In this document: positions 8,109 through 38,960 of the stretch, in pieces
How the letters are laid out: each line of letters begins with the position of its first letter
Position numbering within the stretch: position 1 is the first letter of the stretch
Origin: Rhodocytophaga aerolata
GTDB taxonomy: Bacteria > Bacteroidota > Bacteroidia > Cytophagales > 172606-1
Direction: 5' to 3'
Assembly (NCBI RefSeq): GCF_030503435.1
Contig: NZ_JAUKPO010000001.1
Coordinates: 940,766 to 1,004,765 of the forward strand
DNA: 64,000 nt
Translations under genes and position numbers: made by a program
The notes under the pieces: generated by a model
The model's input: the letters and a program-made list of their open reading frames with translations, nothing else
Told to the model about the DNA's origin: nothing
The model's database searches: none

Positions 8109-8828
8109 ATGGAAAAAAAACCTGCAAATGACAAAATTAGTATTATTATCCCCACATATAATGAAGCAGGCACTATCGAAAAATTAGTAAGTTACCTTAT
8201 TGGTTTTAAAGCTGAAGCTATACACGAGATTCTGGTAGCTGATGGCGGTAGTACAGATGATACTTGCCAGCTAGCCCAACAAGCAGGCGCTTCAGTTATT
8301 GTATGTCCTAAAAAAGGCCGCGGTGCACAAATGAATTCCGGAGCAGCCCAGGCGACAGGTGGTATTCTATACTTTTTACATGCCGACTCTTATCCGCCAT
8401 CGGGCTTCTGGCAAGATATTATTACTTCCATCAAATGTGGATATCCCAGTGGCTGCTATCAGCTGGCATTCGACGATCCACATCCTTTTCTGCGTTTCAA
8501 TGCCTGGTTCACCCGATTTAACATAGATGCGGTCCGTTTTGGAGACCAAAGTTTATTTGTTACCAGCGACGTATTTCAGAAAGCCGGGGGCTTCCGGGAA
8601 GATTTGATTGTAATGGAAGATCAGGAAATTATTGGACGGATCCGCAAGTATGCCAAGTTTAAAATTTTGGCAGGCAAAGTAACTACTTCGGCTAGGAAGT
8701 ACCGGGAGAATGGCGTGTATAAACTTCAGGGAATTTTCTTTCTGATTTATTTTCTTTATCAACTAGGTGTACCACAAGAAAAACTGGTAAAGCTCTATAA
8801 ACGGTTGATCCGGCAGAATAAGGTATAA
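8109..8828 (+). CDS. Family-2 glycosyltransferase, TIGR04283-like (rSAM/selenodomain-associated transferase 2)
   Basis: N-terminus ISIIIPTYNEAGTIE matches GT2. Divergent from the ArsS operon across a 146-bp promoter region. Confidence 0.7.
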   Translation: MEKKPANDKISIIIPTYNEAGTIEKLVSYLIGFKAEAIHEILVADGGSTDDTCQLAQQAGASVIVCPKKGRGAQMNSGAAQATGGILYFLHADSYPPSGFWQDIITSIKCGYPSGCYQLAFDDPHPFLRFNAWFTRFNIDAVRFGDQSLFVTSDVFQKAGGFREDLIVMEDQEIIGRIRKYAKFKILAGKVTTSARKYRENGVYKLQGIFFLIYFLYQLGVPQEKLVKLYKRLIRQNKV

Positions 8829-12944: not shown

Positions 12945-14339
12945 TTACACACTTTTTAATTCGCTCACCACTTTCGTCAGTGTAGACTTAGCATCGCCAA
13001 ATAGCATAAGGCAGTTTGGAAAGCCAAAAAGTTCATTTTCTATACCAGCATATCCGGCACCCATGCTGCGCTTACTTACAATAACAGTACGCGATTTATC
13101 GGCATTCAGAATAGGCATCCCATAAATCGGACTTTGTGGATTTGTGCGGGCAGCAGGATTTACTACATCATTAGCCCCAATAATCAGGGTGACATCTGTA
13201 TTAGAAAACTCATCGTTGATATCATCCATTTCTATGAGTTTATCATACGATACATTCGCCTCAGCCAGCAATACGTTCATGTGGCCAGGCATACGGCCAG
13301 CCACCGGATGTATGGCAAACTTTACGGATATGTTTTTCTTTTCCAGCAAATCGGTAAACTCACGTACTATGTGCTGTGCCTGCGCTACTGCCATGCCATA
13401 ACCGGGCACAATAATAACAGAGGAAGCAGAATCAAAGATCATGGCAGCTTCTTCAACACCCACTTCTTTTACTACAATATCTGATTTGCCTGCAACCCCG
13501 CTACTGCCCGATGTTTGCCCAAAACCTCCTAATAATACGCTTACCAGAGAGCGGTTCATGGCTTTACACATAATCTGGGTGAGAATAATACCAGATGCAC
13601 CAACCAAAGCCCCAGAAATAATTAACACCTGATTATTCAGAATAAACCCGGTAAAACAGGCAGCTACCCCCGAATAAGAATTCAACAAGGAAATTACTAC
13701 TGGCATATCAGCTCCGCCAATAGGAATAACGGTAAGTATACCCAGCAGCAGAGAAGCGCCTATCAGCATCATCATATATAAGTCATTATTGGGATCTAAA
13801 ATTACCATTACACTCAGTATGACGATACCCAAGAACAGTACGGCATTCAGCGGATGCTGTCCTCCAAAAGTAATGGCCTGTCCGTTTACTTTGCCACTTA
13901 ATTTACCATAGGCTACCAGAGACCCTGTAAGCGTAACCGCTCCGATAAAAACACTTAATACGACCCCAACACCAGTAACAATTGGCATTACAATATCAGC
14001 ATCGTGCACCATCCGCCAGTATTCGGAAGTGGCCACCAGTACCGAAGCGCCTCCACCAAAGCCGTTAAATAAGGCTACCATCTCCGGCATCTGGGTCATT
14101 TCTACTTTTTTTGCTACATACAATCCTACTGCCGATGCCAGAATAATGGTTGCAAAAATTTCTGTATAGCTTAGCACGTTCCGGTCGAGCAGGGTAACTA
14201 CTACAGCAATAAGCATAGCCAGCGCCGAATAGGTATTTCCCTGCCGGGCCGTAGAGGTTTTTCCCAGCATTTTTATGCCAACAACAAACAGAACAGAAGC
14301 AATCAGGTAAGCCAGTTGAATAAGTATGGTTCTATCCAT
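12945..14339 (-). CDS. pntB: NAD(P) transhydrogenase subunit beta
   Basis: 464 aa. Multi-TM N-terminus plus the C-terminal NADP(H)-binding dIII domain. Confidence 0.9.
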   Translation of the reverse strand: MDRTILIQLAYLIASVLFVVGIKMLGKTSTARQGNTYSALAMLIAVVVTLLDRNVLSYTEIFATIILASAVGLYVAKKVEMTQMPEMVALFNGFGGGASVLVATSEYWRMVHDADIVMPIVTGVGVVLSVFIGAVTLTGSLVAYGKLSGKVNGQAITFGGQHPLNAVLFLGIVILSVMVILDPNNDLYMMMLIGASLLLGILTVIPIGGADMPVVISLLNSYSGVAACFTGFILNNQVLIISGALVGASGIILTQIMCKAMNRSLVSVLLGGFGQTSGSSGVAGKSDIVVKEVGVEEAAMIFDSASSVIIVPGYGMAVAQAQHIVREFTDLLEKKNISVKFAIHPVAGRMPGHMNVLLAEANVSYDKLIEMDDINDEFSNTDVTLIIGANDVVNPAARTNPQSPIYGMPILNADKSRTVIVSKRSMGAGYAGIENELFGFPNCLMLFGDAKSTLTKVVSELKSV

Positions 14340-29474: not shown

Positions 29475-29738
29475 GTGGATAATAAAGTATATGCAAGCTT
29501 AAAACAGAAACTAGACGAGCAATTTGCTTGGCCTATGTTGTATATGTTCAAGTTCATTGTTCCGGAAGCTAACAAAGATAAAGTAATCACTTTGTTTAAT
29601 AAACACGATGTTAGCAGCCGGGATTCTAAAAATGGGAATTACGTGAGCCTGACAATTCAGATGTTTATGAAATCAAGCGAAGACGTAATTGATGTGTATA
29701 AAAAAGCTTCTACTATAGAAGGTTTAATTGCTTTGTAA
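29475..29738 (+). CDS. DUF493/YbeD-family (UPF0250) protein
   Basis: 87 aa with a GTG start. Colinear with E. coli YbeD (FAWPMLYMFKFIVP ~ FPTPFTYKVMG; SKNGNYVSLTIQM ~ SKGNYHSVSITI). Confidence 0.7.
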   Translation: MDNKVYASLKQKLDEQFAWPMLYMFKFIVPEANKDKVITLFNKHDVSSRDSKNGNYVSLTIQMFMKSSEDVIDVYKKASTIEGLIAL

Positions 29739-29765
29739 AAACTAAATAATATAGGTATCAGGGAA

Positions 29766-29797
29766 AAGGATGAAGTTTAGACTTCATCCTTTTTTGT
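29766..29797 (+). terminator. Rho-independent terminator
   Basis: aaggatgaagt-ttag-acttcatcctt followed by TTTTTGTTTC. Confidence 0.75.
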
Positions 29798-30191: not shown

Positions 30192-30893
30192 ATGAAAGAG
30201 TTACTAGAAGCTTCTGTTTCACTAGTAAATGTTATTCCTACGACTTTACTGGTTTTTGTGATTCTGTATTGGCTCATAGTTATACTCGGGCTGATAGATA
30301 TGGATGCCATAAATTTAGATCTGGACCACGATGTAACGGTGGAACATGAAATTCATACTACTTTCCACACACATGCCGATATTCCAACAAAAGATGTAGC
30401 TGTGAAGGAAATGCACAACACAGAAGTAGCCAACTCTGGTAATTGGATGCAGGCTGCGCTTGTATTTTTTAACCTGGGTAAAGTGCCTTTTATGGTATTT
30501 ATGAGCTTTCTGATTCTACCTATATGGGCTATTTCTATCCTAGTGAATCATTATTTGGGAAACAGTTCGATACTTGTTGCTATAGCATTATTGATTCCGA
30601 ATATACTTATCAGTTTCTTTATAGCAAAAATTTTGACTACCCCTTTTGTCAAGGTATTCAGTTACTTGCAAAACGATCCGGATAAACAGCAAGTTTTAGG
30701 GCAAATTTGTACAGTGCTCCTGCCTGCCGGTTCTGGAAAATTAGGCCAGGCGGTTATCAACAACAAAGGCAATACCATACTTTTAAATGTAAAGTCGGCA
30801 GATGGCCATACATTAGAAAAAGGAAAAAGTGCCCTTGTTCTTGAGTTTAATAAAGAAAAACAATACTATTTAATTCAATCCTTTGATCAATAA
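30192..30893 (+). CDS. NfeD-like / YuaF-like membrane protein with C-terminal OB-fold-like domain
   Basis: 233 aa. Three to four TM segments, a His/acidic loop (DLDHDVTVEHEIHTTFHTH) and a C-terminal beta-rich soluble domain. 7 bp upstream of the flotillin gene. Confidence 0.6.
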   Translation: MKELLEASVSLVNVIPTTLLVFVILYWLIVILGLIDMDAINLDLDHDVTVEHEIHTTFHTHADIPTKDVAVKEMHNTEVANSGNWMQAALVFFNLGKVPFMVFMSFLILPIWAISILVNHYLGNSSILVAIALLIPNILISFFIAKILTTPFVKVFSYLQNDPDKQQVLGQICTVLLPAGSGKLGQAVINNKGNTILLNVKSADGHTLEKGKSALVLEFNKEKQYYLIQSFDQ

Positions 30894-30899
30894 ACAACT

Positions 30900-33101
30900 A
30901 TGTTCACATCTGTAACTTTCGCGGTTATAATTTTTATAGCCTTTTTTCTGATTGCCACCCTTATTTTTATAGCCAACTGCTATCACAAAGCAGAGCAAGG
31001 CATGGCCTTGATAAAAACTGGTGTTGGCGGTACGCATGTTTCTTTTTCAGGTATGATTGTCATTCCGGTAATGCACAGACTAGAGATGATGGATATTTCC
31101 CTGAAAACAGTAGTTATTTCCCGGCAGGGTAAAGAAGGATTGATTTGTAAGGACAATTTACGGGCAGATATTAAAGTAACTTTCTTTGTGCGGGTAAACA
31201 AAACAGAGCAAGATGTTATTCAGGTAGGCCAGTCTATTGGTTGCCGTAGAGCCTCCGATACTAAAGCATTGGAAGACCTATTTGATGCTAAATTCTCCGA
31301 AGCCCTGAAAACAGTAGGTAAAAAATTTGACTTTATTGAACTGTATAATTCCAGAGAACTCTTTAAGCAAGAAATTCTGCAAATTATAGGTACAGATTTG
31401 AATGGCTATATCCTCGACGATTGTGCCATTGATTACCTGGAACAAACTCATATTGAGGCATTGAATGAAAATAATATTATGGATGCGGAAGGCATCAAAA
31501 AGATTATTGAACTGACTGCCAAACAAAAAATAATGGCCAATCATTTTGAGCGGGAAAAAGAAAAAACCATTACCCAGCAGAACGTGCAAGCGAAGGAAGC
31601 TATACTGGAACTGAACCGGCAGTTGGCAGAAACCGAAGAAAAGCAAAAGCGGGAAATTGCTTCTATCCGTGCCCGTGAAGAAGCTGAAATCGCTGTAATT
31701 CAGCAGCAAGAACGGCTGAAAGCAGAAAAAGCACGCATTCAAACTGAAGAAGAATCCCGTGTAGCCGAAGAAAATCGCGACCGTCAGATTATAGTAGCGC
31801 AGAAGAATAAAGAACGCGTAGAAGCTGTAGAAAAAGAAAGAGTAGATAAAGACCGTTTACTGGAAGTTACAGAAAAACAACGGATCGTTACACTTGCTGA
31901 CATTGCCAAAGAGAAAGCCATTGAAGAAGAACGCAAGAATATTCAGGAAGTAATCCGCGAAAGAGTAGCTGTACAAAAAGCAGTAGTGGCCGAAGAAGAA
32001 AAGATAAAAGATACCCAAGCATTTGCTCAGGCAGACCGTGAAAAATCCGTAGCTATCAAACGTGCGGAAATGCTAGCGGAAGAATCATTGGTTCAACAAA
32101 TAAAAGCTGCCGAAGCTGACCGCCAGTCTGCCGAATTGAAAGCCAAACGCCTAGTAGTAGAAGCTGAAGCAGAGCAAGCCACTGCCGGCAAAAAAGCAGA
32201 AGCCATTAAAATACTGGCCGATGCTGAAGCCGCCAAAGCAGCCGCTGTAGGAGTAGCAGAAGCCCAGGTAATTCAAGCTAAAGCCTTGGCCAAAGAAAAA
32301 GATGGTAAGGCGGATGCTACGGTTATAGAGAACAAAGCCATAGCTGAAGCTAAAGGCATAGAGGTGATGGCGAAAGCGCAGGCAGAGGCTGATGAAAAAT
32401 TAGGCTTAGTGGCTGCCAAGATCAACAAAGAGAAAGGCTTATCCGATGCCAATGTAATTGAAGTAAAAGCGCAGGCAGAAGAGAAAAAAGGCTTAACAGA
32501 AGCTAAAATTATGCATGAGAAGTTCACAGCGGAAGCCAAAGGTATTGAAAGCAAGGCAGATGCTATGCGTAAATTAGACGGCGTAGGCAAGGAACACGAA
32601 GAGTTTAAGTTGAGATTACAGAAAGAAAAAGACGTTGAACTGGCTATGATCAACATTCAGAAAGCAATTGCCGATGCACAAGCTACCGTATTGGGAGAAG
32701 CCCTGAAAGTATCTAAAATTGATATTGTGGGTGGCGAAACTATGTTCTTCGACAAACTGGTGAATTCCATTAGCAATGGAAAGTCTGTAGATAAACTGTT
32801 TACCAATAGCCATGTACTGACAGATGTTAAAAACACGTTCTTTACCAATGGAAACGGCAATGGACACAGTAATGGAAAAGATGACCCCAAAGCTATATTC
32901 AGAGATAATCTGAAGAAGCTGGTAGATCAGTTTGGCATTACATCAGAAGATGTAAAAAACCTGAGTGTGGCTGCCCTCCTGATGCAGATGTCTAAGTTGG
33001 CTGACGATAAAGAATCCAAAGGCTTGCTTAATCAACTGATGCAAATGGCTAAAAAGAAAGGCGTTTCTGACGATGCTGCGCAGACTTTAGGTATCTGGTA
33101 A
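30900..33101 (+). CDS. Flotillin-family protein (FloT/YuaG-like: TM hairpin, SPFH domain, EA-repeat flotillin domain, about 200-aa C-terminal extension)
   Basis: 733 aa. N-terminal TM, a band-7 core and long AEAEA/KAEAEK coiled-coil repeats. Confidence 0.8.
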   Translation: MFTSVTFAVIIFIAFFLIATLIFIANCYHKAEQGMALIKTGVGGTHVSFSGMIVIPVMHRLEMMDISLKTVVISRQGKEGLICKDNLRADIKVTFFVRVNKTEQDVIQVGQSIGCRRASDTKALEDLFDAKFSEALKTVGKKFDFIELYNSRELFKQEILQIIGTDLNGYILDDCAIDYLEQTHIEALNENNIMDAEGIKKIIELTAKQKIMANHFEREKEKTITQQNVQAKEAILELNRQLAETEEKQKREIASIRAREEAEIAVIQQQERLKAEKARIQTEEESRVAEENRDRQIIVAQKNKERVEAVEKERVDKDRLLEVTEKQRIVTLADIAKEKAIEEERKNIQEVIRERVAVQKAVVAEEEKIKDTQAFAQADREKSVAIKRAEMLAEESLVQQIKAAEADRQSAELKAKRLVVEAEAEQATAGKKAEAIKILADAEAAKAAAVGVAEAQVIQAKALAKEKDGKADATVIENKAIAEAKGIEVMAKAQAEADEKLGLVAAKINKEKGLSDANVIEVKAQAEEKKGLTEAKIMHEKFTAEAKGIESKADAMRKLDGVGKEHEEFKLRLQKEKDVELAMINIQKAIADAQATVLGEALKVSKIDIVGGETMFFDKLVNSISNGKSVDKLFTNSHVLTDVKNTFFTNGNGNGHSNGKDDPKAIFRDNLKKLVDQFGITSEDVKNLSVAALLMQMSKLADDKESKGLLNQLMQMAKKKGVSDDAAQTLGIW

Positions 33102-33316
33102 AAAATGAGTACATAGATGCTCATAGGTAGGAATGTTACTATATAAAAAAGCTAGTAACATATGCCTTCAATTTAACAAAAGTAATTTTTCTGACTGTGT
33201 GCTGTTATCAAAAATGACAGCATACAGTCTTCTACCTATCTTACAGATCATTCACCGAAGAATGGTCAACTAGCTTTATAGATAAGCTAATCTTCAAGTA
33301 AAGATTTATTAGCTCC

Positions 33317-36300
33317 ATGGCAAATCCAACCCCAGCAATAAAAGAAAATCCGGTAAAAGAAGCACATCTGGAAGAAGGCACTTATGAAATAATCCGGAAC
33401 CGCTTGCGTAAACAAGGAAACGAACTGCGCACCCGACTCGATACATTGAATCACAAAAGGCGTGAAGTATTTGGTTCTATTGAAACACGTTTGCTGGCTA
33501 CCGAACGCATTACTACCGACAACAACTGTGTCCCAGTAGACATGGTTCCTGTAAATGACCTGTTCATTTTTGGATACAATGTACACATGGGCCTAAAAAC
33601 AGAGACTAGTATTAGTGATGTATTTAGTGTTTACCGGTATCAAAACCACAGTTTCGTTCAACAGCCTTTAGATTTAATTGCAGACAAACGTTTTGAAGAA
33701 GATTTTAAGAATCTCTACAAATACTACCGGAATACACAGTTTGCCAAATTTGCTTTATTAGGTCAGCGGCTGTTTATGATTTTTCAGGTTGGAAAAAGCC
33801 AGGATGATATCAAAACCTTTAAATGGGTAATAGAAGGAGACAAACTAACCTATGTGGATAACCGCAGTGAAGGCGAATTTTCATATCCGGACCAGTACCA
33901 GTTTAAATGGAAACGAACCTCCCGCGAAGCACGCAGAGAAGGAAAGTTCCCACATATATCTATCGCTGACCGGGTATTTGTTGAAACCATCGGCGGCGAT
34001 CTTACGATCAAAATAGAAAATAACACAGCCAGTGGAGAGGGCATTTATTCAGAAGAGGTAAAACACAAAGACCAGACCCTGGACGATGCGGAAATCTTCT
34101 ATGCCATAATTGGGAGCATTGTGGTACTCAAAATCAAACCATTTCAGGAAAATGAGTATCGCTATATTGTATACAATGAAAAAATCCGGCAGGCACGCCG
34201 CATAGATTCCCTGAAAGATTCCTGCGTATTTCTACCCGACGACCACGGAATTATTTTCGCAAATGGGTATTATCTGCAAACTGGAGAATACAAGCTATTC
34301 GATACTCAAATGGCTAATATGCTTTTTGAAAAACGTATTGCTTCTCCCAATGGCGAAGATTTTCTATATATATTTTATAGCAAGGTTACCGGCATTTATG
34401 AGTTACTCTCCTATAACCTCATAGAACAAAAAGTGGCCATTCCAATTATTTGCCATGGCTATTCCATCTTTGAAAATGGCGAACTCTGCTATTTTAAAGG
34501 AGAAGACGAGCCTAAGAAACATCATGTTGTACAAATCTGGCAGACACCCTATGTAGACCCTAACTTTCCCCTGCACACAAGCAATAGTGAGTCCTATTTG
34601 TATAAAATCGGCAATAAAGATGTAGTTAGGGCAATGGCCGAATGCAACGAACTGCTCACGTTAATCGACCGGGACGACAGTTATGCCAACTTGTATCTGG
34701 ATCTGGTAAAGATGTCTACCGATATTATAGACTCTTACCACTGGCTTAATAAAGAAGAAACCCTTCGTTTGATTGAGCCGCTAGCAGAGCTAAAGCAATC
34801 GGCCTCAACGGCCATTGAGGAGTTTGAAAAAGTAACCCGTATCAAAAAGAATACAGCTGTTGAGGTAGAACGGGTAACTGGCAAAATCACAAAAGTATTT
34901 GCAGATGTCAAACGGCAACAGCCCGAAAGTATTGATTATTTTGTACATTTTCTGGCTGAACTGCGCACCCTACGAGGAGAAACTATTTCGCTAAAAAGCC
35001 TGCGGTATGTAGCCATTTCTTCCATTGAAAGTAAGGAAAAAGAAATTGAAGCATATACTACAAAACTATCTGATGAGTGTGTGCAGTTTTTATTAAAAGA
35101 CGATGCGTTACTGCCCTACCACCAGAAAGTTACACTGCTGCAAGAGCATATCAACAAAATAGAAAAAGTAATAGATGCCAGCAAAACAGAAGAAGAAATA
35201 ACCAAAACATCGCAGGAACTGGAGATGTTGATAGAGGTGGTAAGTAACCTCAAAATTGAGGATGCTACCCAAACCACGCGGATCATTGACAATATTTCTT
35301 CTATTTATGCCCATTTCAACCAGATTAAAGCTGCCCTTAAACGCAAAAGACAGGAATTAGTAGGTATAGAAGGCAAAGCTGAGTTCGCCTCCCAGTTAAA
35401 ACTTATAGATCAGGGAGTGGCCAATTATCTGGATATTAGTGAAACACCTCAGAAATGCGATGAATACATCACTAAGCTAATGGTGCAACTGGAAGAGCTG
35501 GAAGGAAAATTCACCGAATTTGAAGAGTTTACGGAAAAAATTACAGAAAAGCGGGAAGAAATATACAATGCCTTTGAAAGCAAAAAACTAAGCCTGATTG
35601 AAGCCAGAAATAAACGTGCCACTAGCCTGCTGCAATCAGCCGAACGGATACTCAAAGGGATTAATAACCGGGTAACTTCTTTTGCTACCAGCTCAGAAAT
35701 TAACGGCTACTTCGCCTCTGATCTCATGGTAGATAAGGTACGCGATATTATTAAGCAATTAATTGAAATTGGCGATACCGTAAAATCAGATGACATCCAA
35801 AGCCGTCTAAAAACTGCCCAGGAAGAAGCCATACGCCAGCTGAAAGACCGCCAGGAATTATTTGTAGATGGAGCCTCTATTATTAAGTTTGGCGACTTTA
35901 AGTTTTCTGTCAATACGCAGCCATTAGATCTGACGATGGTCTACCGCAACGGAGATATGTATTACCATTTAACAGGGACTAATTTCTTTGAGAAAGTAAC
36001 CAATGCCGCTTTTAACAACTCCCGTAACGTATGGGAACAAAGCTTAGTGTCGGAAAACAAACAAGTATACCGCGCCGAATATCTGGCTTATCAGATAATT
36101 AAGAAGGCACAAGAAGCTGAAAAAACTTCTGTATCTAACGGAATGCAATACCTGACTCTGGAAGTTCTACATAAGTTAACCGATGAAGAGTTACTTGCCT
36201 ACATTCAGAAGTTTATGGCTCCCAGGTACAATGAAGGCTATATAAAAGGAGTGCATGACCATGATACACGGATATTACTCCGGGCATTGCTGAACTTTAC

Positions 36301-38257
36301 TCAAACAATAGATCTGCTGAGGTACCCTTCTGCAGCCCGTGCCTGTGCTTCGCTTTACTGGCAATACTTTGCCGATGCCGGCCACAAACAACTTATGTAT
36401 CACCGGCTGAAAGGGGTGGGCATTATTTTACAAGTATTTCCGAAAACCCGGGAATTTGGCGGAATTATAGAAGAACTACAGGCTGAGATAGCTGCATTTA
36501 GCCGGGAGAATAAATTATTTAGTGAGACTTTTGCACCCGAAGCTGGGGAGTACCTATTCTACGAAATTACCCGCAGCGACAGTTTTATTGCGGATGCTGA
36601 GGCGGCGGATTTGTATAATCAGTTTATGCACTATTTGGCATCCAACCATTCTGCCGACAGATACCACAGTTCCATAGAAGCGCTGGAAAATACACCCATT
36701 GCCCGGTTTAAATTAATTAAAAAATGGCTGGGCGCTTATATTGATTTTATTTATCAGGAAGCTAAACGGGAGTATTTAGATGAAACGGCTGTCCTGTTAT
36801 ATGGGGAAGATCTGGAGAAAAAGAAAGTGATTCAGCTATCTCTTAAGTCTGAAATAGAAGGCTTGCAAGGTTCACATGCTGTAATAGAAAATGGCCGGTA
36901 TCAGCTGGATTATAACAGCTTCATGACTAAACTGAAACTATTTGATACGCAACTAGTACCTGAGTTCAGCCAATTTCAGGATACAAAGAAAAAGCTATTG
37001 GAAGAATTTAAACAAGATCTGCGGTTGGAAGAATTTAAATCTCACGTTCTGACTTCCTTCATCCGGAACAAACTGATAGATCAGGTATATCTTCCATTGA
37101 TTGGAGCTAACTTAGCCAAGCAGATTGGTACGGCTGGCGATACTAAACGTACCGACCGTATGGGTATGTTGCTATTAATTTCACCTCCGGGATATGGTAA
37201 AACCACCTTAATGGAGTACATAGCCAACCGTCTGGGAATTATTTTTATGAAGATCAACGGACCAGCTATAGGACATAAAGTTACTTCATTAGATCCTGCA
37301 GAAGCACCGAATGCCTCAGCCCGGGAAGAAATTGAAAAGCTTAGTCTGGCCCTTGAAATGGGTGATAATGTCATGTTGTATCTGGATGATATTCAGCATT
37401 GTAATCCGGAGTTTTTACAGAAATTCATTTCCCTGTGCGATGCTCAACGTAAAATAGAGGCTGTATACAAAGGCAAAAGCCGCACCTATGACTTACGTGG
37501 CAAAAAAGTATGTGTAGTCATGGCCGGTAATCCCTATACCGAAAGTGGTGAAAAGTTCCAGATTCCGGATATGCTAGCCAACCGGGCTGACATTTACAAC
37601 CTCGGCGACATTATTGGCAATGCAAGTGAGGCTTTCAAACTGAGCTACATAGAAAACAGCCTGACCTCTAACCCGGTTATGCAAAGGTTGAGCAATAAGA
37701 GCCATGCAGATGTGTTGGCGATAGTCCGACTAGCTCAGACTGGTAGCAAAGATGGCATTACCTATGAAGCAAGTCATTCGGCAGAAGAAATTAATGAATA
37801 TGTAGCGGTACTGAAAAAGTTATTAGTTATTCAGGAAGTTATTTTGAAAGTAAACAAAGAATATATTCATTCGGCTGCACAGGCAGATGAGTTCCGTACA
37901 GAACCTCCTTTCAAACTACAAGGTTCTTACCGGAATATGAATAAAATGGCTGACAAAGTGGTAGCCTTAATGAATGACCAGGAATTGGAGATGGTTATCC
38001 AGACGCATTACGAAAATGAAGCCCAGACATTAACTACCGGAGCTGAGGCCAATCTGTTAAAATTTAAAGAACTCATAGGAAAATTAACACCCACAGAACA
38101 ACAACGATGGGAAAATATTAAGGCTACTTACGTAAAGAATAAGAAGATGAGAGGATTAGGCACTGATAATCAGGTAGGGCAAGTAGTTTTAACTATGGAA
38201 TCTATTTCGGAAGGCTTGCAAGGTATAAAACAAGCTCTTTTAACAAAGGAAGAATAA
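33317..38257 (+). CDS. Giant (1,646 aa) coiled-coil protein with C-terminal MoxR/AAA_5-like AAA+ ATPase core
   Basis: Walker A LLLISPPGYGKTT (about nt 37180-37215). Walker B VMLYLDDIQH (about nt 37365-37395). Sensor/Arg region MAGNP...NRADIYNLGD. The upstream 1,250 aa or so have no recognisable motif and include a long E/K/L-rich heptad region (aa about 480-900). Automated pipelines may label such proteins DNA repair ATPase; that is from memory and unverified. Confidence 0.7.
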   Translation: MANPTPAIKENPVKEAHLEEGTYEIIRNRLRKQGNELRTRLDTLNHKRREVFGSIETRLLATERITTDNNCVPVDMVPVNDLFIFGYNVHMGLKTETSISDVFSVYRYQNHSFVQQPLDLIADKRFEEDFKNLYKYYRNTQFAKFALLGQRLFMIFQVGKSQDDIKTFKWVIEGDKLTYVDNRSEGEFSYPDQYQFKWKRTSREARREGKFPHISIADRVFVETIGGDLTIKIENNTASGEGIYSEEVKHKDQTLDDAEIFYAIIGSIVVLKIKPFQENEYRYIVYNEKIRQARRIDSLKDSCVFLPDDHGIIFANGYYLQTGEYKLFDTQMANMLFEKRIASPNGEDFLYIFYSKVTGIYELLSYNLIEQKVAIPIICHGYSIFENGELCYFKGEDEPKKHHVVQIWQTPYVDPNFPLHTSNSESYLYKIGNKDVVRAMAECNELLTLIDRDDSYANLYLDLVKMSTDIIDSYHWLNKEETLRLIEPLAELKQSASTAIEEFEKVTRIKKNTAVEVERVTGKITKVFADVKRQQPESIDYFVHFLAELRTLRGETISLKSLRYVAISSIESKEKEIEAYTTKLSDECVQFLLKDDALLPYHQKVTLLQEHINKIEKVIDASKTEEEITKTSQELEMLIEVVSNLKIEDATQTTRIIDNISSIYAHFNQIKAALKRKRQELVGIEGKAEFASQLKLIDQGVANYLDISETPQKCDEYITKLMVQLEELEGKFTEFEEFTEKITEKREEIYNAFESKKLSLIEARNKRATSLLQSAERILKGINNRVTSFATSSEINGYFASDLMVDKVRDIIKQLIEIGDTVKSDDIQSRLKTAQEEAIRQLKDRQELFVDGASIIKFGDFKFSVNTQPLDLTMVYRNGDMYYHLTGTNFFEKVTNAAFNNSRNVWEQSLVSENKQVYRAEYLAYQIIKKAQEAEKTSVSNGMQYLTLEVLHKLTDEELLAYIQKFMAPRYNEGYIKGVHDHDTRILLRALLNFTQTIDLLRYPSAARACASLYWQYFADAGHKQLMYHRLKGVGIILQVFPKTREFGGIIEELQAEIAAFSRENKLFSETFAPEAGEYLFYEITRSDSFIADAEAADLYNQFMHYLASNHSADRYHSSIEALENTPIARFKLIKKWLGAYIDFIYQEAKREYLDETAVLLYGEDLEKKKVIQLSLKSEIEGLQGSHAVIENGRYQLDYNSFMTKLKLFDTQLVPEFSQFQDTKKKLLEEFKQDLRLEEFKSHVLTSFIRNKLIDQVYLPLIGANLAKQIGTAGDTKRTDRMGMLLLISPPGYGKTTLMEYIANRLGIIFMKINGPAIGHKVTSLDPAEAPNASAREEIEKLSLALEMGDNVMLYLDDIQHCNPEFLQKFISLCDAQRKIEAVYKGKSRTYDLRGKKVCVVMAGNPYTESGEKFQIPDMLANRADIYNLGDIIGNASEAFKLSYIENSLTSNPVMQRLSNKSHADVLAIVRLAQTGSKDGITYEASHSAEEINEYVAVLKKLLVIQEVILKVNKEYIHSAAQADEFRTEPPFKLQGSYRNMNKMADKVVALMNDQELEMVIQTHYENEAQTLTTGAEANLLKFKELIGKLTPTEQQRWENIKATYVKNKKMRGLGTDNQVGQVVLTMESISEGLQGIKQALLTKEE

Positions 38258-38615: not shown

Positions 38616-38897
38616 ATGACCAGAGAACAATTAGAACAAAAAATTAAAGAGATGGAAGCTACCATTAACCAGCTGAAACTGGAAAAAGAAGAAGCTCAGC
38701 AACTGGTAGAAGTAGTATATGAATGTGTACAAAAATTAGAAAACAAATACAGAAAGTCTGTAAACCGGGAATTGAGTTACCGCGAAATGCTGTTCCATTT
38801 CAATCACCAGAAAGCACAGGATTTATTAAGAGATTATATCAGCAAAGATGCCCTGAAAGTACAGTTCTATGGTGCTTACAACTATCGTTCTAACTAG
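38616..38897 (+). CDS. Small coiled-coil hypothetical protein
   Basis: 93 aa. Heptad-like N-terminus. Followed by a strong terminator. Confidence 0.4.
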   Translation: MTREQLEQKIKEMEATINQLKLEKEEAQQLVEVVYECVQKLENKYRKSVNRELSYREMLFHFNHQKAQDLLRDYISKDALKVQFYGAYNYRSN

Positions 38898-38930
38898 TAA
38901 ATAGAAATAAAAACAATAAGCTATGGAAAG

Positions 38931-38960
38931 AAACCTGCTCTAGAGCAGGTTTTTATTTTT
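38931..38960 (+). terminator. Rho-independent terminator
   Basis: aaacctgctct/agagcaggttt perfect stem followed by TTTTATTTTT. Confidence 0.8.

Follow-up and report, generated by a model that had tools for sequence, protein, structure and literature searches.

A YqiJ-like protein, a YqiK-type flotillin and a giant AAA+ ATPase encoded side by side in Rhodocytophaga aerolata, with a structured spacer ahead of the ATPase gene

The YqiJ-like protein and the flotillin

The DNA analyzed here (hereafter called the window) is a 64,000-nucleotide (nt) stretch of the Rhodocytophaga aerolata contig NZ_JAUKPO010000001.1 (positions 940,766 to 1,004,765, forward strand), and coordinates given below are those of the window unless another locus is named. 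The subject of this work is an array of three genes on the + strand, which encode a YqiJ/NfeD-like membrane protein of 233 amino acids (aa) at 30192..30893, a YqiK-type flotillin of 733 aa at 30900..33101, and a giant AAA+ ATPase of 1646 aa at 33317..38257. An earlier interpretation made from the DNA letters (hereafter, the sequence-only reading) had proposed the same three open reading frames (ORFs) on one strand, and the ORF list agreed with it in lengths, strand and coordinates. Of the two spacers that it gave, the 215 bp between the flotillin and ATPase genes was correct, but the gap between the YqiJ-like and flotillin genes is 6 bp and not 7 bp. The base composition across the three-gene region was unremarkable.

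The identity of the 733-aa protein was not evident from a whole-protein Pfam scan, which returned nothing even at E<=10; an SPFH/Band_7 domain (PF01145) emerged only when the coiled coil was trimmed and aa 1-220 were scanned alone, with E=5.4e-11 at aa 47-205 (31038-31514, + strand). The precomputed Pfam tables contained a '-' for this flotillin and for its orthologues at two other loci (L015 and L097). Because the SPFH domain is missed by whole-protein Pfam scans, automated neighbourhood surveys will under-count SPFH linkage. The protein has one hydrophobic segment at the N terminus (aa 1-31), which is a predicted membrane anchor, followed by the SPFH domain, an E/K/A-rich coiled coil of about 400 residues (aa 206-600 consist of 62% E/K/A/Q/R), a conserved 'IVGGE..FF' region and a C-terminal tail. 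It was found to be 54% identical to Flavobacteriaceae orthologues and 31% identical over 444 aa to the Escherichia coli flotillin YqiK (E=1e-43), and a hidden Markov model (HMM) of the flotillin family matched YqiK with E=1e-74. On the basis of these similarities, the protein is classified as a YqiK-type (SPFH2) flotillin.

The 233-aa protein has about three predicted membrane segments (approximately aa 4-42, 88-122 and 116-156) and ends in a soluble domain of ~80 aa. Neither Pfam nor NCBIfam matched this protein or any of four orthologues, and the Hymenobacter orthologue carries the NCBI label DUF1449. An HMM built from 60 orthologues matched E. coli YqiJ (DUF1449) over aa 2-195 with E=6e-13 and an hhalign probability of 96%, and it is by this profile only that the protein is placed in the YqiJ/NfeD-like family. 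It was established by Hinderhofer et al. 2009 (PMC2636767) that YqiJ and YuaF accompany SPFH2 flotillins as their NfeD-like partners. The pairing of an NfeD-like protein with a flotillin, as had been suggested in the sequence-only reading, is therefore supported by the YqiJ profile match, the SPFH domain and the homology to YqiK.

The first two genes are homologous to, and in the same order as, the E. coli yqiJK and Bacillus subtilis yuaF-floT pairs (PMC2636767), neither of which includes a gene for a giant ATPase. The flotillins that are linked to the ATPase are also longer than YqiK (640-770 aa compared to 553 aa), and their C-terminal ~250 residues could not be aligned with it.

Architecture of the giant ATPase

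The ATPase belongs to a family that comprises over 5,000 clusters at a 90% identity threshold, most of which are named 'DNA repair ATPase' by NCBI, and which includes BacE (PA3728) of Pseudomonas aeruginosa, as described below. Its first ~1,250 residues had been described in the sequence-only reading as lacking recognizable motifs, which proved to be incorrect. A DUF3686 domain (PF12458, E=8e-190) was matched by Pfam at aa 36-475 (33422..34741, + strand), and it is modelled as an N-terminal helix followed by a β-propeller. A DUF7902 domain (PF25472, E=1e-29) was matched at aa 596-680 (35102..35356, + strand), within a long helical region of approximately aa 416-840. The model and alignment place a conserved middle region, composed of a small β domain and a helical domain, at aa 841-1240 (35837..37036, + strand), followed by the AAA+ module at approximately aa 1250-1480 (37064..37756, + strand). 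A structure model of aa 841-1646 (mean predicted local distance difference test score 81.3) contains the small β domain, the helical domain, the AAA+ module and a helical C terminus. No membrane segment was found in the 1646-aa protein, which is predicted to be cytoplasmic, and no protease domain was matched. Searches of the PDB by sequence profile aligned only ~35-100 residues around the Walker A motif and gave no relative for the middle region.

DUF3686 occurs almost exclusively in proteins ~1600-1900 aa in length (797 representatives with clustering at 50%; the shorter ones are probably fragments), and the giant ATPase is 57-62% identical across Bacteroidota families. In an alignment of 14 sequences from at least four phyla, the Walker A motif GYGKT (aa 1292-1296), the Walker B motif LYLDD (aa 1354-1358), N1405 and R1423 were invariant. 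The middle domain contains a further motif, G978-x-H980-D981-x-D983 (KGVHDHD, at 36248-36265), which was also invariant across at least four phyla.

The sequence-only reading had called this protein a MoxR/AAA_5-type ATPase, and MoxR is also its JGI name. The presence of an AAA+ domain was confirmed, but the MoxR/AAA_5 label was found to be weak: the AAA_5 match, which is the sole likeness to MoxR proteins, was marginal, at 23.4 bits for a cutoff of 22, and was outscored by PF00004. When the AAA+ module was compared to known structures using Foldseek, the neighbours were RuvB, ClpB, spastin, Rix7, ClpA and Vps4 (E values from 6e-5 to 2e-3), and further neighbours included FtsH, Lon and Cdc48, whereas the MoxR protein CbbQ appeared only at rank 46. 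In the model, a β-hairpin precedes the sensor-1 strand, and there is no helix-2 insert (no β-hairpin between β2 and α2) of the kind present in MoxR proteins. We found no gene nearby for a VWA-domain protein, the usual MoxR partner, and the evidence is against MoxR identity. Under the established classification of AAA+ proteins, these modelled features point to the HCLR-type group rather than MoxR.

The name 'DNA repair ATPase' implies that the protein acts on DNA in the manner of RuvB or SbcC/Rad50 and that its adjacency to a flotillin gene is incidental. Apart from the Pfam and NCBI names themselves, this idea could draw on a weak RuvB_N match (24.4 bits, below the cutoff of 27) and on the Foldseek comparison, in which RuvB ranked first for the AAA+ module (E=6e-5, template modelling score 0.33). 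However, these matches span only the generic P-loop/AAA+ core, and the NCBIfam ruvB models gave 21-24 bits compared to cutoffs of 282-299. There was no match to an SMC, Rad50, SbcC or DNA-binding domain, no nuclease partner was found, and the terms DUF3686, PF12458 and 'DNA repair ATPase' combined with flotillin were not found in the literature searched. The genes linked to the ATPase gene encode membrane proteins and PspA (see below). We therefore consider a role in DNA repair to be extremely improbable; the name is likely a misnomer across thousands of records, and it probably originated from sub-threshold RuvB_N or coiled-coil similarity.

Conserved linkage and the flotillin-ATPase junction

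The conservation of the array was evaluated in two sets of loci. The annotated loci were tblastn hits in plasmids or chromids of Hymenobacter, Pseudomonas, Proteus, Vibrio, Halomonas, Streptomyces, Nonomuraea and Deinococcus, together with two Flavobacteriaceae genomes; they represent Bacteroidota, Gammaproteobacteria, Actinomycetota and Deinococcota, counted here as four phyla. The second set came from scanning metagenomes with an alignment drawn from several phyla; it comprised 80 loci, and only those with enough upstream sequence were counted. A scan of genome contigs with the single protein yielded only two true loci, and the breadth of the comparison comes from the tblastn and metagenome searches. 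A Planctomycetes homologue (P0118) is on a contig too short to show neighbours and is outside the counts.

In all of the annotated loci (11/11), a flotillin-family gene was found directly upstream of the ATPase gene and in the same orientation, and the flotillin gene was upstream in 69/71 informative metagenome loci. The YqiJ-like gene preceded the flotillin gene in 9/11 annotated loci and was directly upstream of it in 48/51 metagenome loci. A CesT/Tir gene and a pspA gene were present in addition in 20/44 metagenome loci; this full five-gene form was also recovered in Flavobacteriaceae and Hymenobacter, and the models at the head of the longer operons were checked by Pfam (PspA, E=2e-42; CesT_Tir_1, E=3e-53). 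The linkage of the ATPase to flotillin and NfeD-like genes, which the sequence-only reading had offered as the test of its proposal, thus holds decisively, and the module has in the giant ATPase a third component of its own. The dependency runs one way, as a gene for such an ATPase is missing from E. coli yqiJK.

The same reading had gone on to regard the giant ATPase as new to SPFH biology, and in this it was mistaken. Ravi, Anantharaman, Aravind et al. (mSystems 2024, PMC11237479; bioRxiv 2020) described operons joining a CesT/Tir-PspA pair with three more proteins, namely a Band-7/flotillin, an AAA+ protein and a three-transmembrane YqiJ/YuaF protein, with Dokdonia donghaensis ANH61663.1 given as an example. 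According to the passages of that paper on these operons, abbreviated forms without PspA have a wider distribution and may cooperate with a PspA whose gene lies at another site. The three proteins, their architectures and the conserved three-gene neighbourhood described there are the same as those of the window. The window lacks the PLD gene and the CesT/Tir-PspA pair of the full operon (no PspA or CesT homologue was found in the 64 kb at E<=1), and because the pair is not present the locus is taken to be the abbreviated form. The locus is therefore a further member of the known abbreviated YqiJ-flotillin-AAA+ operon, and the linkage itself is no discovery. The study is purely one of comparative genomics, and its passages on this operon contain no structural or intercistronic RNA data.

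Variable companions of the module were also observed. A PLD-family (PLDc_2) gene of ~230 aa accompanied it in 10 loci (L097 at 13260-13952, L012, L021, L025, L026, L027, L041 and others), but its placement differed: it could follow the ATPase gene downstream, lie upstream of the YqiJ-like gene, or be encoded on the other strand. In the Pseudomonas fluorescens plasmid pQBR103 (L007, 16-13220), a cluster of YjfI-PspA, rhomboid, DUF2491, DUF350, DUF1190 and glutathionylspermidine-synthase genes lies on one strand with the YqiJ-like, SPFH and giant ATPase genes; this array merges two PspA operon classes that are treated separately by Ravi et al. (PMC11237479). In Maribacter (L001, 14949-15419), and at this locus only, a 156-aa protein with the J-domain-like motif KEWHPDKF is encoded directly 3′ of the ATPase gene. 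The window itself has neither a PLD gene nor a J-domain gene.

The P. aeruginosa homologue (P0123) is a 1746-aa protein with DUF3686, DUF7902 and AAA domains, encoded between flotillin-like and PLD genes in the gene order DUF2170-PspA-213 aa-688 aa-giant ATPase-PLD-YaeQ-RecJ-LasB. This array corresponds to PA3732 to PA3727, or bacABCDEF (PMC10948618). Orthology places BacC, BacD and BacE with the three window proteins, the giant proteins being ~40% identical, and by this comparison BacE (PA3728 / PA14_16190) is a member of the ATPase family. The Pseudomonas operon also encodes BacA (DUF2170), BacB (PspA) and BacF (PLD).

Several published observations on the bac genes can thus be connected to the ATPase. 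It was shown by reverse transcription-PCR (RT-PCR) that bacE is co-transcribed with the flotillin gene bacD, with a product of 557 bp (PMC10948618); we mapped the published primers within the flotillin gene (7665) and the ATPase gene (8202-8221), positions that give exactly the 557-bp junction product. The doubt about co-transcription raised in the sequence-only reading is thereby answered in Pseudomonas, and the flotillin and ATPase genes of R. aerolata may likewise be co-transcribed. All Bac proteins, including BacE, increased 6- to 13-fold in a bacA mutant, the abundance of BacB increased during osmotic shock, a sigma-54 promoter was proposed for bacABCDEF, and bacA and bacB mutants had biofilm, rhamnolipid and virulence phenotypes; BacE itself was listed by the authors only as a 'hypothetical protein', without analysis (PMC10948618). 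Elsewhere, PA3728 is listed as an 'ATPase' that is recurrently mutated in cystic fibrosis isolates, and PA3728-PA3732 were up-regulated in all phage-infected P. aeruginosa samples.

The 215-nt spacer between the flotillin and ATPase genes (33102..33316, + strand) was found to be highly structured. It is predicted to fold into four hairpins, including a 16-bp stem at 33191-33229, with no T-tract following, and its minimum free energy was -62.6 kcal/mol (z=-6.35 relative to shuffled sequences). The hairpin sequence occurs once in the window, and there was no Rfam match inside the spacer. In the relative L015, the ATPase of which is 96% identical, the loops diverge, whereas a compensatory change (GTTACTA/TAGTAAC to GTTGCTA/TAGCAAC) and wobble changes preserve the stems.

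This structure recurs across the family, in the spacers of L019-L095 and of L097 (7852-8000). Flotillin-ATPase spacers of 60-450 nt had a median z of -4.13, with z<-2 in 39/46, whereas coding windows of the same length had a median z of -0.21 (z<-2 in 2/46) and other same-strand intergenic gaps a median z of -0.71 (z<-2 in 18/60). The difference between these spacers and the other intergenic gaps was significant (Fisher p=1.6e-8), where the shuffles used across the loci, for spacers, coding windows and other gaps alike, preserved mononucleotide content only, and the loci share phylogenetic relationships. A T-rich tail after the strongest spacer hairpin was present in 2/45 loci. The P. aeruginosa bacD-bacE spacer also contains a long hairpin (z=-2.5), yet it is crossed by the RT-PCR product. 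The structured, T-tract-less flotillin-ATPase spacer is apparently a new detail, and we interpret it as a stoichiometry device that would provide much scaffold and little motor.

A different interpretation of the spacer is that it contains a terminator and a promoter, so that the giant gene would be transcribed on its own and would merely adjoin the flotillin pair. The strong structure of the gap, and gaps of ~150 nt being typical of the family, are compatible with this. However, gene order and strand are kept across the metagenome (69/71) and annotated (11/11) loci, the two genes overlap or are separated by 30 bp or less in some cases, the hairpins lack T-tracts in 43/45 loci, transcription reads through the comparable hairpin in P. 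aeruginosa, and promoter-like motifs in the gap were not above chance. We consider independent transcription of the ATPase gene to be very improbable.

Canonical terminator-like hairpins with T-tracts were found on both flanks of the unit, and there were none between its genes. On the upstream side, such a hairpin (29762..29795, + strand; a stem of 15 pairs and then a T run) closes off the DUF493 gene (29475-29738) that comes before the unit, and on the downstream side a second one lies at 38929..38954 (+ strand); these are the probable boundaries of the transcription unit, and sub-threshold Rfam matches were obtained at these two sites only. Between the ATPase gene and the downstream hairpin there is an ORF for a 93-aa coiled-coil protein (38616..38897, + strand). 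It is kept in the relative with the 96% identical ATPase, and a homologue was found in no other searched locus. This ORF may be a lineage-specific add-on or possibly no gene at all, and its membership in the module is doubtful; it was rejected as a core component, as were the J-domain gene, seen at one locus, and the PLD gene, seen at 10. The neighbouring genes are of a housekeeping nature, encoding ProRS, a FadL-like outer-membrane protein, the DUF493 protein, a CarboxypepD_reg protein and a serine dehydratase, and no mobile or defence genes and no island features were found among the window neighbours.

Possible role in envelope stress

We favour, at slightly better than an even chance, an interpretation in which the three genes encode an envelope-stress module, the cytoplasmic AAA+ motor of which would remodel or recycle flotillin assemblies, PspA assemblies, or both. 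The link to stress comes from the PspA and CesT_Tir_1 genes at the head of the longer operons, the rise of the Bac proteins in the bacA mutant, the induction by phage and the increase of BacB in osmotic shock; co-regulation with PspA, like co-transcription, is demonstrated in Pseudomonas. A role in ATP-dependent sub-membrane remodelling was proposed for the same operon by Ravi et al. (PMC11237479).

We infer a sequence of events in which the N-terminally anchored flotillin, aided by its YqiJ-like partner, would form a scaffold of oligomers at the inner membrane, on its cytoplasmic face, and the ATPase would dock on this scaffold through its propeller and helical regions. Oligomeric and fuelled by ATP, the AAA+ motor would then assemble, disassemble or recycle flotillin polymers, ESCRT-III-like PspA polymers, or both, during membrane damage, and the structured RNA between the flotillin and ATPase genes would keep the scaffold in excess of the motor. 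Such a mode would be functionally analogous to that of Vps4 on ESCRT-III. The likeness consists of a gene for a remodelling polymer (PspA, in the long operons) beside an AAA+ gene, together with the presence of Vps4 among the fold neighbours. The ATPase has no MIT domain and its N-terminal region is entirely different from that of Vps4, and we do not claim membership in the Vps4 group.

Several observations weigh against this interpretation. The Walker B motif (37376-37390) ends in DD and not DE; AAA+ proteins usually have a catalytic Glu where this ATPase has the second Asp, and therefore hydrolysis could be slow or switch-like. Either LYLDD or the G-x-H-D-x-D motif could reflect such hydrolysis or a second, metal-binding site. 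The window has no pspA gene, and so a PspA substrate would need to have its gene in another part of the genome. The two exceptions to flotillin linkage among the 71 metagenome loci, L032 (1-1495) and L035 (1-1743), contain the giant ATPase gene, but the 1.5-1.7 kb upstream of it have no gene for a flotillin. Whereas a sigma-54 promoter is proposed in P. aeruginosa, no sigma-54-like site was found upstream of the array in this organism, and the Bacteroidetes motif TAnnTTTG was at chance level, with none on the + strand upstream. Sigma-70-like sites were also at chance level.

A related possibility is that the module serves membrane-protein quality control, with the flotillin scaffold corralling client membrane proteins and the AAA+ motor extracting or unfolding these clients instead of the scaffold. 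Pairing of an SPFH scaffold with an AAA+ machine at the membrane is established for HflK/C with FtsH and for prohibitin with the m-AAA protease (references cited in PMC2636767), the fold neighbours include the unfoldases ClpB, ClpA, FtsH, Lon and Cdc48, and the modelled β-hairpin before the sensor-1 strand would be shared with HCLR-type unfoldases. In contrast to FtsH and the m-AAA protease, the window ATPase is predicted to be cytoplasmic, has no protease domain, carries a β-propeller and is homologous only in the AAA+ core, such that the comparison is an analogy only. Furthermore, no protease partner is conserved in the operon, and PspA, the partner that recurs, is a polymer in need of remodelling in its own right. 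We regard quality control as unlikely, although it deserves consideration.

The induction of PA3728-PA3732 by phage would also fit a system of anti-phage defence or abortive infection, in which flotillin and YqiJ would sense perturbation of the membrane by phage and the ATPase would act as effector or switch, with a PLD enzyme taking part in some lineages. The module is found on plasmids in several lineages, and the PLD-family gene alongside it in 10 loci and in P. aeruginosa (as BacF) is in keeping with this idea. However, when phage induces PspA this is an envelope-stress response of a generic kind, the window lacks the PLD gene, and the genomic context is one of housekeeping genes. PADLOC gave no significant match for the three proteins: there was none for the first two, and the best for the ATPase was mad8 at E=0.0067 (14 bits) over the P-loop region. 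The ATPase is also 58-62% identical across Bacteroidota families, unlike fast-evolving defence genes. A dedicated defence function therefore seems quite unlikely.

Flotillins and PspA have been widely studied, and we know of no energy source for their dynamics. If the envelope-stress interpretation is taken to its full extent, the giant propeller-AAA+ protein may be the missing ATP-driven motor of flotillin/PspA membrane repair, acting as a Vps4-like recycler of SPFH and ESCRT-III-like polymers, with its dosage set by the T-tract-less hairpin through partial termination or stabilization of the upstream-cistron mRNA; we put this forward tentatively and consider it rather doubtful in this complete form. 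The evidence against the MoxR and DNA-repair labels corrects the annotation of the family, a domain map of the ATPase and a recurrent RNA feature at the flotillin-ATPase junction are supplied, and the family is tied to BacE (PA3728) of P. aeruginosa, where genetic tools exist.

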